DNA of 64,000 nt, from NCBI GenBank assembly GCA_951406725.2, contig OX597825.1, positions 38,626,001 to 38,690,000 on the forward strand, given 5' to 3'. The notes under the pieces were generated by a model. It saw only the letters and a list, made by a program, of their open reading frames with translations, was not told where the DNA came from and made no database searches. Shown piece by piece: positions 12,762 to 63,507 of this stretch. Each line of letters opens with the position of its first letter. Position 1 is the first letter of the stretch. The stretch is from Octopus vulgaris. Lineage: Eukaryota. The position numbers were made by a program, and so were the translations under genes.

Positions 12762-13315
12762 GTGTGAGAGAGCAGTTCATGCCATCAAAGTGACACTAGG
12801 GTAAAATATACGAAGCCCAATATACCCATCATGACTACCCGTCTGATAAGGGTACACCAGGCACATGCATCACAACCATATGTGCGCGACATGGTGATCT
12901 CATATCAAGATAATCAGCACATGACCTTGCAGGTGGGGCCCAGTTAGAATTTTCGTCAGGTTGAGTAGCCCATCCCGCTCAAAAGGTCCTTGAATAAGGG
13001 TTATTTAAGGATGTTGAAAGAACCACCCATGTTTCCAGAGGTAAATTATTCAAACCCCAAAGAATTCCTCTCAACACATGGCTATGATGCTCTCCCACTA
13101 CTTCTGCTCGTGATCAGAGATGCACATATCGTCAGCCACTAAGGGACATGCTAAACTGATTAAGGTCAAACAACTGACAAGCAAATCTGTGGTATTGAGC
13201 AGAATATTTGCTGTAGCCCATCTTTTATACCAAGACAAAACAATGTACATGATAACACTTCCAATCAGTTAAGATCAGAAGCCATGAGAGCCACTGCCTG
13301 GTACTGCATCAGGGC

Positions 13316-27710: not shown

Positions 27711-27770
27711 GGATGATGATGATGATAATGATGATAATAATGATAATAATAATAATAATAATAATAATAA
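27514..27770. repeat. (TAA)/(TGA)n microsatellite
   Basis: Direct reading. Confidence 0.95.
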
Positions 27771-28238
27771 CAGCAAATATTCTGCTCAATACCACAGAAT
27801 TGCTTGTCAGTTGTTTGACCTTAACCAGTTGAGCATGTCCCTTAGTGGCTGACGATATGTGCATCTCTGATCACGAGCAGAAGTAGTGGGGGAGCATCAT
27901 AGCCATGTGTTGAGAGGAATTCTTTGGGGTTTGAATAATTCACCTCTGGAAACATGGGTGGTTCTTTCAACATCCTTAAATAACCCTTATTGAAGGACCT
28001 TTTGAGCGGGATGGGCTACTCAACCTGAAGAAAATTCTAACTGGGCCCCACCTGCAAGGTCATGTGCTGTTTATCTTGATATGAGATCACCATGTCGCGC
28101 ACATATGGCTGTGATGCACGTGCCTGGTGTACCCTTATCAGACGGGTAGTCATGATGGGTATATTGGGCTTCGTATATTTTACCCCAGTGTCACTTTGAT
28201 GGCATGCACTGCTCTCTCACTCAATAATAATAATAATA
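27771..28238 (+). mobile_element. non-coding (TAA)n-tailed retroposon, copy 2 (5'-truncated)
   Basis: Matches about 12762-13213 in reverse; lacks the first ~105 nt of copy 1; ends CTCTCTCACTCAA(TAA)n. Confidence 0.9.
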
Positions 28239-47745: not shown

Positions 47746-48171
47746 ATATCTACAATAATATGTATAATAATACATGAATCTCGCAACGTCCGATTATTCA
47801 TATGATACACGAAAAACCAAATCTGTGCAAGATGTTATTGAAGACGAAGGGATTGGAATGCAATGGTGTTTTTTTTTACAAAGCTTACGGAGATTATGCA
47901 TATATATATTTTTGAAGGAACTAATGCGAAATAGGTATAGAATTAAGTCGGTAGTATTTGTGTGTTGTAGATATAACTTTCTAACAAAACAATTTCAATA
48001 ATTTATTAAATCTCAGAACGAGATGTAAACAGTAATCGCTCGAAAATGTAAAGTTTAATAACCATCTCAAGATTTAATAATGCTTGCAGTCAGTTTTTCG
48101 AAATCAGTGGCAGAAGTCACTAGAAAAACTCTTATATATTTGCAAACAGGCCTTGTCTTTCATCGAGATCC

Positions 48172-48388
48172 GGTGATTACCGCCCGTTGATAAGAGACAA
48201 TAATCTCGAAACCGCGGTCCGGTGCGTATCACTCAGGCTTACGAGAAAGGGATGGCCTCCCTTTGCAAATACCATAAGAGCACAGAAAGTGTGTCTAAAG
48301 ACAGCTGGAGACGATGATCTCCTGGGGCTAAAAAGCTACAGTAACACCCTCCTTTGTGGTTAGCCATATTCAGATGGCTATTAAACTT
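48172..48388 (+). mobile_element. ~200-bp structured repeat carrying a hammerhead motif, copy 1
   Basis: Homologous to 63104-63296 plus a 24-nt indel; several short hairpins follow the HHR. Confidence 0.85.
48181..48226 (+). ncRNA. minimal type I hammerhead ribozyme, U3-A8 variant
   Basis: CGCCCG-TTGATAA-GAGA(CAATAA)TCTC-GAAA-C(CGCG)G-TC-CGGTGCG; predicted cleavage after C48219. Confidence 0.8.
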
Positions 48389-49841
48389 TACAATATCAAT
48401 AATATTCGTAAGAATGAGAAAAATATTTGCATGATCAATTGCTGTCGTTTACATAATTCAGTGTAGTTAGTTGCCTTATGGTTGCTATGAATTTTAAAAC
48501 CCAGCAAAACTCAGTGTAACTTTTTCACGCATGAAAACAATCAGCATTGTTCTCGTGCTCACTTTTATTAATTATATTGCATAAAAACCTAAGCAGCCAT
48601 TTCTTTTTGCATTCCTAGTCTTGCAACGTTTTTGCAATGACTTTACAGGGCCAATATCGCATTAGTGGCAAAATGAGATTAACTTTGATTTTGTTTTTCA
48701 ATTAAAGCGTAACTATATTCGTTAAGAAAGAGACATTGTTTTCTCCACTGCATGAACTAAAAATTTAGGGTTATATATATCTGAGTATGCGTTTGTGAGC
48801 GTTTTTTAGGTGTGTACATACACACATACCCATAACACATATCTAAGATAACCCTCGGGAGAATTAAGGAATAGCAGACACCCGAATTTCCCAGACTAAC
48901 AAGGAAAGGTATCGTTCTTTAGGTTTAGAATAACTTCTAGAATGTTATGCATTGGCCATTCGACTAGTCTACGCACGCTATTCTAACCCGCTTTTTAAAA
49001 AAATGTATTTGAATTTAGCGCTTAATTATCAGTTGTTATTTTCAATTCCGATAATACTTAAATCTGTTGAGGAAGTGTTTGTCAGGGGGAAAAAACGCTC
49101 TTTCTTTAATCATCCTGAATTTATTAATCATAATAATTATTTCATCATTGCAAACAGCCAAGTAAACTGCTACCATCCTTAATTCAGAAAAAGGAGACAG
49201 TGATGTGATATTCCAGTTGCCTGACACTACCTGTTTAGTGTAAGTTATTGGCAGTTAAGTACGCTTGATGTTTGAATGACCTGGTGGGTTACGATTCATT
49301 TGATCCTAACAGACTTCAACAGAACAAACGCACATTTAGCGTTTAAAAGAATCTTTGATGCACATACTGGTCAGCATTTCCTTTTGTCCTTCCCAAGTGT
49401 AAAAATGAGAATGGTTTTTCGGATGAATGATCTAATAAATCATAATTGAATAGAAATATAAATAATTTGACAGCGCTTTTAAAAATAACAAAAAAGCGTT
49501 TCATTGATATCCCAAAAGGAAAAACAAATATGTATGTAAACGTGAATGCTATTCGGTTCTTTCAAAATATATTGCTAATGTTTTTCGTGTCTATATTCTG
49601 TATCGCAAATAACAAAATGTTATGTAGAATTCGAAAAATATAACGATGACGTGTACCATACACATTTAAACGCGTACATTTAATATTCTAGAAATAGGTG
49701 GCATAACGGCCACTGATACCACACACTTTTCTGTAGTTGTAGAGTTCGTATACCGGGAGAAAATACGGATGATCACAAATGAAAAGCATCTAATCATAGG
49801 TCAACTCAATCAGAGTACCCCGAGATTTATTACTAACAATA

Positions 49842-55662: not shown

Positions 55663-56241
55663 TTGGCGACGAGCTGGCAGAGTCATTAGCACGCCGGGCA
55701 AAATGCTTAACGGTATTTCGTCTGCCGTTACGTTCTGAGTTCAAATTCCGCCGAAGTCGACTTTGCCGTTCATCCTTTCGGGGTCGATAAATTAAGTACC
55801 AGTTACGCACTGGGGTTGATGTAATCGACTTAATCCGTTCATCTGTCTTTGTTTGTCCTCTCTGTGTTTAGTTCCTTGTGGGTAGTAAAGAAATAGGTAT
55901 TTCGTCTGCCGCTACGTTCTGAGTTCAAATTCCGCCGAGGTCGACGTTGCCTTTCATCCTTTCGGGATCGATTAAATAAGTAACAGTTACGCACTGGGGT
56001 CGATATAATCGACATAATCCGTTTGTCTGTCCTTGTTTGTCCTCTCTGTGTTTAGCCTCTTGTGGGTAGTAAAGAAATAGGTATTTCGTCTTTCTTCAAT
56101 TTCAGAGTTCAAATGCCGCTGGGGTCGACTTTGCCATTCATCATTTCGGGGTCGATAAATAAAATACCAGTTACGAACTGAAGTCAATGTAATCGACAAG
56201 TCCCCTTCCCGAAAATTTCAGACCTTGTGCCTATAGTAGAA
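55663..56241 (+). mobile_element. SINE family A trimer (184-bp period) with one 18-bp TSD
   Basis: GGTATTTCGTCT recurs at 55712, 55896 and 56080; flanked by AAGTATAT[A/C]GTATATCAC at 55645-55662 and 56242-56259. Confidence 0.9.
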
Positions 56242-62171: not shown

Positions 62172-62386
62172 TGAGCTGGCAGAGACGTTAGCACGCCGGG
62201 CGAAATGCGTAGCCGTATTTCGTCTGCCGCTACGTTGTGAGTTCAAATTCCGCCGAGGTCGACTTTACCTTTCATCCTTTCGGGGTCGATTAAATAAGTA
62301 CCAGTTACGCACTGGGGTCGATATAATCGACTTAATCCGTATGTTTGTCCTCTCTGTGTTTAGCCCCTTGTGGGTAGTAAAGAAAT
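62172..62386 (+). mobile_element. SINE family A (young copy)
   Basis: Near-identical to the first unit of the trimer, including the GTGGGTAGTAAAGAAATA linker. Confidence 0.9.
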
Positions 62387-62888
62387 ATATAAATGTGCAC
62401 CCATATCATATTATTCCTACGCACACACACGCACGCATATATATATATATAAATGTGTGTGAGGGGCTGTGAGTGTGTGACTCTCTGCTTCCGTATGTGG
62501 ATGTTTGTGCGTGTACATATGTGAGTGTGAGTATGAATGTTGTGTTTGCGCGCGTCTGTGAGTGTACGTGTGTGTGCACGCGCTTGTGTGAGTGTAAAAA
62601 CAGAAAAACCTCAAAGCTAGTTTGGGGTATTCTTCCCTTTAGCTATTTTCATGATTGCACATAATTTCGAACGACGTCCTGCTGAGACACCAATGACCGT
62701 TGTAGGCAATGATGGCGCATCACACTTATTGAAAGCCTGCTACAATGTATTTCGAAATCTATGTATCTAAGTACAAAAATATGTACTTTTATTGTCATTT
62801 CAGCAATTTTAAGCGGCAAAATATATAATCGATTTTGTATAAGGCAATGTACATAAATCATAGCGTTGATCGCACGCGCGCACACACA

Positions 62889-62932
<44 letters not shown>

Positions 62933-62967
62933 AAACATGCACACACACACAAACATGCACACACACA

Positions 62968-63060
62968 GACGTGGCTGCGTGGTAAGAATCTTGCTTCCCA
63001 GCCACATGATTCCGGATTCAGTCCCACAGCGTGGCACCTTGGACAGGTGTCTTCAACCAT
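62968..63060 (+). mobile_element. SINE family B, 5' part
   Basis: GTGGCTGCGTGGTAAG A-box, GGATTCAGTCCC B-box-like, GCACCTTGGACAGGTGTCTTC. Confidence 0.8.
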
Positions 63061-63103
63061 ATATGTATAAGTATATGTATATAGCATTATTAAATCTCTG
63101 AAC

Positions 63104-63296
63104 GAGTGGTTAACGCCCGTTGACAAGAGGCAACAGCCTCGAAACTGCAGTCCGTGCGTATCACTTAGGCTTATGAGAAAGGGATGGCCTCCCTTTGCAA
63201 ATACCATAAGCTGGAGACGATGATCTCCTAGGGCTAAAAGCTACAGTAACACCCACCCTTTGGGGTTAGCCATATTGAGATGGCTATTATACTTTA
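63104..63296 (+). mobile_element. ~200-bp structured repeat carrying a hammerhead motif, copy 2
   Basis: Homologous to 48172-48388; runs into a (TA)n tract. Confidence 0.85.
63114..63158 (+). ncRNA. minimal type I hammerhead ribozyme, U3-A8 variant
   Basis: CGCCCG-TTGACAA-GAGGC(AACA)GCCTC-GAAA-C(TGCA)G-TC-CGTGCG; predicted cleavage after C63152. Confidence 0.85.
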
Positions 63297-63340
<44 letters not shown>

Positions 63341-63346
63341 TATATG

Positions 63347-63507
63347 CGTCGAGCTTCTTTCAGTTTCCTTCTACCAAATCCACCCACAAATCTTTAGTCG
63401 GATAGAGGCTATAGTAGAAGACACTTGCCGAAGTAGCCATGCAGTGGAACTGAATCCGGAACCATATTGTTGGGAAGCAAGTTTCTTACCCCGCAGACAC
63501 TCCTACG
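63347..63507 (-). mobile_element. SINE family B
   Basis: Reverse complement of the family B head and body (CTTCTTTCAGTTTCC..CTACCAAATCCAC...GAAGACACTTGCC...TGGGAAGCAAG). Confidence 0.85.

Follow-up and report, generated by a model that had tools for sequence, protein, structure and literature searches.

The ribozyme-bearing repeat analysed here in a 64,000-nucleotide stretch of Octopus vulgaris DNA (the window, that is, the whole stretch under analysis) appears, on a modest balance of the evidence, to be one copy of a dispersed and abundant family that carries a U3-A8 hammerhead and was inserted by the enzymes of Penelope-type retrotransposons (PLEs) from a retrozyme RNA of approximately 356 nt, its ribozyme being weakened. 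A wider reading, in which the family would be a non-LTR retrozyme of approximately 356 nt that switched to U3-A8, has C3-G8 sisters, thousands of truncated copies and Penelope-type scars, and is likely the first in a cephalopod, is put forward more tentatively and with somewhat less than even confidence. The repeat in question is designated copy 2; just one other family copy, copy 1, occurs in the window, 15 kb away.

63106..63296, plus strand: body of copy 2, 5'-truncated at the first shared base of stem I; a hammerhead followed by a row of hairpins
63106..63164, plus strand: type I hammerhead of copy 2, comprising stem I, core, stem II, GAAA and stem III
63127-63140, plus strand: stem II of copy 2 including its loop, within the hammerhead
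63136, plus strand: near-private G of copy 2; A in copy 1 and in 99-100% of contig depth in 4/4 runs
48173..48390, plus strand: body of copy 1, with core 48187-48193, loop 2 CAATAA, predicted cut 48219/48220 and a 26-nt hairpin at 48277-48302

A U3-A8 type I hammerhead lying inside a repeat family had been recognized from the letters of copy 2, and both the motif and the second copy in the window bear this out. The core TTGACAA is at 63120-63126, stem II joins GAGGC (63127-31) to GCCTC (63136-40) through five Watson-Crick pairs (pair probability 1.0), GAAA is intact at 63141-44, the palindromic stem III ACTGCAGT occupies 63144-51, and the GTC cleavage triplet at 63150-52 places the predicted cut at 63152/63153. 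The core elements of a type I hammerhead are thereby present, namely positions 3-9, G12 A13 A14, the A15.1-U16.1 pair, H17 and a Watson-Crick 3-8 pair, read as UUGACAA, GAAA and UC in copy 2 and with UUGAUAA as the core of copy 1; three helices with stem I open are found, stem III of the monomer having just 2 bp. Some details of the preliminary description need amendment. Stem I pairs as it stated except for the two outermost pairs, 63104-63105 being not element body but part of an inverted tail piece joined to the body at 63106, and the stem includes two G-U pairs towards its outer end, while the third pair counted from the core is a C-U mismatch. The segment missing from copy 2 is 26 nt (copy 1 48277-48302), not 24 nt. 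Copy 2 does end at 63296 in (TA)n (TRF 63295-63345), but the (TA)n is flank rather than the end of the element; in contigs of four public sequencing runs other family members continue past 63296 into a short tail.

The Rfam model Hammerhead_HH9 (RF02275) matches copy 1 at 48169-48242 with 33.3 bits (E 1.6e-4 over the full 64 kb), the alignment covering all 77 HH9 positions and retaining each consensus pair. In E-value mode this is the sole hammerhead among 91 Rfam matches in the window, most of which are microsatellites matching miRNA models, and no hammerhead is among the 16 matches to 62900-63500. The chance occurrence of a hammerhead look-alike within the end of an ordinary SINE or LINE would fit the finding that no Rfam match in the 64-kb window, from the hammerhead clan CL00010 or any other, is at gathering level (copy 1, HH9 33.3 bits vs gathering 52; copy 2, Hammerhead_1 12 bits, E 2.9, vs gathering 34), and also the modest folding of a 71-nt copy 2 fragment relative to shuffles (z -1.82, 9/200 as good). 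Such an origin is nevertheless extremely improbable given the E-value of the copy 1 match over the whole window, the two-sided differences that distinguish the copies in stems II and III (pair 4 of stem II, A-U/G-C; palindrome of stem III, CTGCAG/CCGCGG), and the fact that no core change is listed among family contigs at 63120-63126 or 63141-63145 at an 8% threshold. A hammerhead descriptor likewise finds one site in the window and none in 200 shuffles, a control that is favourable because the descriptor, which misses copy 1, was composed after copy 2 had been seen. The copy 2 body as a whole folds with a z of -2.26 (2/200 shuffles as good).

Compared with 48173-48390, copy 2 shows 174 identities, 16 mismatches and 29 gap columns. 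Copy 1 is built with a 6-bp inner stem I, an internal loop UUAC/GUA, a 4-bp stem II and the loop CAAUAA, and thus shares with HH9 and with Sm-alpha of S. mansoni the 6-bp inner stem I with internal loop and the 4-bp stem II capped by a 6-nt loop with C:A at its base, whereas HH9 differs in its C3-G8 pair and longer stem III and scores copy 1 below gathering (33.3 bits < 52). By sequence, the loops of copy 1 resemble those of the Schistosoma hammerhead as presented in PMC2632901, where the loop is CAAAUA with an open C:A opposition. Relative to copy 1 and the HH9 consensus, copy 2 has a G replacing the 3' A of loop 2, UUAA in place of UUAC in loop 1, a stem I that is one G shorter and mismatched (C-U) beyond its second pair, and G-U instead of an A-U pair. 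The loop 2 substitution at 63136 is nearly private to copy 2, with A accounting for 99.4%, 99.4%, 99.4% and 100% of contig depth in runs X1, X2, X6 and X18, respectively; at 63109, where copy 2 also has G, the share of A is 60%, 98%, 72% and 35% across the four runs. G63136 supplies the fifth stem II pair, so that the 4-bp stem and 6-nt loop of the family become a 5-bp stem in which the 3' A of loop 2 is replaced. In solved hammerheads this A makes a pair with loop 1, and in that of Schistosoma its partner is the first U there (PMC2632901). Copy 1 has the two bases of this tertiary contact, U on the 5' side of loop 1 and A on the 3' side of loop 2; copy 2 has G at the latter place and in lacking the loop-2 A also departs from HH9 and Sm-alpha. 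The loss would be expected to lower the activity of copy 2 while leaving its family identity unaffected.

The ribozyme of copy 2 is therefore likely to be weakened by its substitutions, and for that reason sister copy 1 is likely the better of the two to test. The earlier ranking of copy 2 as the best-formed member and best candidate is thus not supported, and that copy 2 outperforms every other ribozyme of the family, perhaps cutting a host transcript at 63152/63153, is quite unlikely. The intact core, GAAA and UH site would permit activity, as would the predicted stem II (p 1.0) and inner stem I (p 0.77-0.93) of the isolated fragment and a favourable dimer fold; U3-A8 hammerheads are active in vitro (PMC3088659), and in one viroid hammerhead the effect of the loop-2 A-to-G change was smaller yet significant (PMC2632901). 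Weighing more heavily on the other side are the near-private G63136, the changed loop 1, the stem I C-U mismatch, the Rfam score of 12 vs 33.3 bits, the predicted absence of stem III in the monomer (p 0.0) and the lack of a partner copy within 15 kb. Published precedents are also discouraging: a PLE hammerhead that was tested needed protein and left no cut-site reads (PMC11167929), and dimers of only 1/9 Xenopus retrozymes tested cleaved (10.64898/2026.07.22.740005).

Folding models qualify the choice between the copies. For the copy 1 monomer the models predict a misfold (p about 0), whereas the inner stem I of the isolated copy 2 fragment is predicted to form, and the ranking of the copies could therefore reverse in vitro. 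Stem III is predicted in neither monomer. Two copy 2 molecules are, however, modelled to co-fold into a hammerhead dimer (-50.5 vs 2 x -20.4 kcal/mol) with an 8-bp intermolecular stem III (p 0.81-1.0), and the hammerhead dimer is the predicted co-folding minimum for both copies, which agrees with the preliminary proposal of the dimer as a suitable form. For the construct 63090-63300 the modelled stem I probability is about 0.3-0.37, and in a nested-structure model the head-to-tail dimer of that construct did not form the shared stem III. The bench test as first given is probably aimed, for a cleavage that is itself predicted, at the weaker copy.

Contigs of the family were collected at 80% likeness from the four public runs, which carry two organism labels and of which X1 and X2 were read in part; the run with most family contigs may be the window's own sample. 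They number at least 2,427 (X1), at least 2,235 (X2), 1,506 (X6) and 179 (X18), X18 having no cover at 63070-63101. X18 may be an RNA run, although the listing of runs carrying the family named none as RNA. Summed contig depth, a crude proxy and not copy number, is higher at 63270-77 than at 63150-57 by 6.7x, 15x, 9.8x and 16x in X1, X2, X6 and X18, a 7-16-fold rise toward the 3' end of the kind that 5' truncation would give. Other family members have the 26-nt hairpin, as loose ends at 63209/63210 show. Among the family contigs neither U3 nor A8 has a listed change at the 8% threshold, and the U3-A8 core can therefore be regarded as a subfamily trait. Related contigs with a different 5' half and a standard C3-G8 core number at least 10, at least 11, 14 and 2 in the four runs, this 5' half being seen in loose ends before 63137 and 63149, and one X18 contig pairs U3 with G8. 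The family thus seems, from these contigs, to hold both cores plus a possible intermediate, and C3-G8 and U3-A8 sister subfamilies would offer a natural comparison of cores in a full-length hammerhead. A metagenome locus with one match to a 21-nt family hairpin was set aside as unrelated bacterial DNA in which about 22 letters agree by chance.

The surroundings of both copies hold inverted and duplicated sequence as follows.

63083..63106, minus strand: inverted 3'-tail piece of copy 2, head-to-head with the body
48003..48069, minus strand: inverted piece of copy 1, made up of ~21 nt from the end of the body and 46 nt of tail
48070..48086, plus strand: distal tail in direct orientation, directly before an upstream 86-nt segment
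63072..63083, unstranded: weak candidate for the left target-site duplication of copy 2, AT-rich, 12 bp
63297..63308, unstranded: candidate right target-site duplication of copy 2, starting the (TA)n tract
47989..48002, unstranded: candidate left target-site duplication of copy 1, 14 bp, 1 mismatch
48390..48403, unstranded: candidate right target-site duplication of copy 1, a repeat of 47989-48002

At their 5' ends both copies carry the tail as its reverse complement (63083-63106; 48003-48048), the copy 2 piece matching 48003-48022 on the plus strand as well as the reverse complement of 48070-48084. A head-to-head inverted 5' piece with tail is accordingly seen in 2/2 copies, and in joints of other family contigs the inverted tail meets the body at 63214, 63231 and 63236. 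Together with the 7-16-fold rise in depth, the attachment of the inverted tail at several body positions indicates 5' truncation. Both copies share the same 3' end base, and contigs running past 63296 into the tail number at least 64, at least 53, 56 and 8 in the four runs. The candidate duplication of copy 2 is exact (63072-63083 = 63297-63308) but lies in simple repeat, and its word occurs 15x in the window; pairs as good as that of copy 1 make up 191/2,359,305 junction pairs outside simple repeats (8e-5) and 6,043/3,235,950 overall. The direct part of copy 2 starts at 63106, the first base of the shared stem I, and that of copy 1 starts further upstream. Joints of the inverted tail at 63236 were counted in at least 53, at least 30, 35 and 5 contigs of the four runs; judged from these, the joint is either a preferred truncation point or the mark of an amplified stump subfamily of ~85 nt.

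PLE insertions are described as having pLTRs of ~190-220 bp with an adjacent inverted copy, an optional tail of ~30-40 nt and 8-10 bp duplications, and as targeting microsatellite or AT-rich DNA (PMC3846280; 10.1101/2021.04.23.441226), the tail sitting between two internal start sites for the reverse transcriptase (RT; PMC11167929). The octopus copies share with endonuclease-positive PLE insertions the hammerhead near the 3' terminal unit, the head-to-head inverted 5' piece, the optional tail, a candidate target-site duplication, the AT-rich targets and the 5' truncation (PMC3846280; PMC11167929). They differ in that the tail occurs in forms of 17-52 nt, the hammerhead is canonical rather than minimal, and an RT-GIY-YIG ORF was not found among the window ORFs searched. 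A Pfam search of 30/116 stop-to-stop ORFs of the window, the non-microsatellite ones being chosen, gave 0 RT or GIY-YIG hits and 2 weak hits below cut-off, and the tie to PLE enzymes therefore rests on anatomy. Insertion by Penelope-type retrotransposon enzymes is considered likely from that anatomy.

What was inserted may be read from a further segment of copy 1.

48087..48172, plus strand: segment upstream of the copy 1 hammerhead, 86 nt, complementary to the sequence after the hammerhead

This segment aligns to the reverse complement of the post-hammerhead sequence with a score of 40 (0/1,966 window controls) and forms a duplex of -47.6 kcal/mol (0/493 controls as good), and it likely belongs to the element. 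Read on the direct strand, copy 1 consists of the distal tail (48070-86), the 86 nt, the hammerhead, the hairpins and the end, and a single head-to-head junction (48069/48070) accounts for the whole copy 1 insert provided that tail, 86 nt and hammerhead adjoined one another in the template, in which case the unit would be 218+86+52 = 356 nt, leaving no room for an ORF. Copy 1 alone thus points to a self-paired unit of about 356 nt that lacks an ORF. The region 48070-48390 is 43% GC and folds with a z of -3.28 (0/100 shuffles as good), and no open frame runs through the body. The link of tail to 86 nt is present in one copy. Tandem arrays are absent from the window, no joints going back were found in the contigs, which are short and could hardly show one, and the start of the 86 nt was not shown by loose ends behind 63296, where mixed AT-rich letters follow after about 17 bases. 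A 31-aa frame of the 86-nt segment has 0 relatives among 1.84 billion proteins, a weak result at that length, and two short frames of 48077-48187 gave no usable Atlas match.

Non-LTR retrozymes are ORF-less units of ~170-400 nt with a GC content under 45%, and those of mussels measure 350-390 nt (PMC7229834). With these Mytilus-type elements the octopus family shares a canonical type I hammerhead, present in copy 1, with a short palindromic stem III (PMC7229834; 10.64898/2026.07.22.740005), a putative unit length of ~356 nt vs repeats of 350-390 nt and, for that putative unit, a GC content under 45% and a self-paired, ORF-less constitution, dispersed monomers also being known (PMC7229834). It is distinguished from them by its U3-A8 core and by the solo, 5'-truncated copies seen here, which bear an inverted tail of PLE type and candidate duplications. 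Type I motifs of canonical build whose palindromic helix III has 1-2 bp are assigned to the retrozyme class and not to the minimal PLE class (PMC4209133; PMC7229834). The minimal motif (min-HHR) has a helix II of 6-8 bp, an unpaired base between A9 and G10.1 and a short stem I, and metazoan PLE hammerheads are described as minimal, with a long helix II, an extra base before helix II and a poor loop 1 (PMC4209133). The octopus motif lacks these traits, having a 4-bp stem II, a G directly after A9 and a long stem I. Replacement of the C3-G8 pair by U3-A8 is shared with Cercyon motifs (PMC4209133) and other natural variants (PMC3088659), but the Cercyon motifs are minimal (PMC4209133) whereas the octopus motif retains helix III and, in copy 1, the bases of the loop 1-loop 2 contact.

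Both copies could instead be 5'-truncated pseudo-LTR stumps of an autonomous PLE with no independent retrozyme unit, the 86-nt segment then being the 3' UTR of the element or an old inverted copy acquired through a template jump. Every insertion signature fits this explanation equally well, the body of 191-218 nt equals published pLTR lengths (PMC3846280), a template jump within the end of an autonomous PLE could yield the order seen in copy 1, U3-A8 motifs are reported in Cercyon PLEs with about 1,300 hits in S. mansoni (PMC4209133), and PLE families with recent insertions are reported in Octopus vulgaris (PMC13282606). It is nonetheless regarded as a rather unlikely account, in view of the canonical hammerhead here vs the minimal hammerheads of metazoan PLEs (PMC4209133), the copy 1 tail that leads to the 86 nt and hammerhead and not to an ORF, and the 31-aa frame without relatives, weak as this last point is at that length. 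Under the preferred explanation, origin from a retrozyme RNA, the hammerhead of the source element would have a 4-bp stem II, a 6-nt loop 2 and an internal loop in stem I, and would cut multimeric transcripts, mainly as a dimer via the palindromic stem III, into units able to circularise. PLE reverse transcriptase and GIY-YIG endonuclease would nick AT-rich DNA, and reverse transcription would begin internally, both at the position corresponding to 63296 and where the tail ends; an early stop would give the 5' truncation, with the head-to-head inverted piece and the target-site duplication left behind. Copy 2 would be a solo product in which bases of loops 1 and 2 were later substituted and the 26-nt hairpin disappeared, and by itself in a host transcript it would cleave poorly.

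Mobilisation of retrozymes by PLEs has been proposed from their co-occurrence and from pLTR similarity (PMC7229834; 10.64898/2026.07.22.740005). Should the ORF-less unit of 356 nt be borne out, the inverted tails and duplications of the family would link retrozymes mechanistically with Penelope enzymes and, if true, would constitute direct structural evidence of PLE enzymes mobilising retrozyme RNA circles. The components themselves are familiar. U3-A8 is a natural, accepted covariant that is active in vitro (PMC3088659), a palindromic stem III with dimer cleavage is standard (PMC4209133; PMC3088659; PMC6155905; PMC6765202; PMC7151607), and earlier publications cover U3-A8 cores, dimer-type stem III, retrozymes and PLE hammerheads alike. 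Copy 2 by itself is a decayed example of a ribozyme-bearing repeat whose kind is already known. Octopus repeat surveys report PLEs, with no ribozymes in their main text (PMC13282606; PMC8967140), and no description of this family was found among the titles and passages of the largely open-access literature searched; the supplement of PMC13282606 or repeat databases like Repbase may contain it already.

The window is AT-rich (GC 27-38% per 2 kb) and rich in microsatellites (114 tandem-repeat rows), and SINE-like repeats are also present. The 5' half of one SINE-like repeat (62971-63061, plus strand) and an inverted copy (~63345-63500, minus strand) bracket copy 2, and this pair, 81% alike over 91 nt, could make a long hairpin in a transcript. 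A second SINE-like family is found at 55712-56198, at 62173-62387 and in at least 6 other places in the window, once as a 2.6-copy tandem with a 184-nt period; both families resemble octopus SINEs. In addition, 12764-13214 and 27770-28220 form an inverted pair of 451-nt repeats with 97% identity at a spacing of 14.5 kb, each member adjoining a (TTA)n tract, and by its features the pair is the apparent end of a young retroelement.
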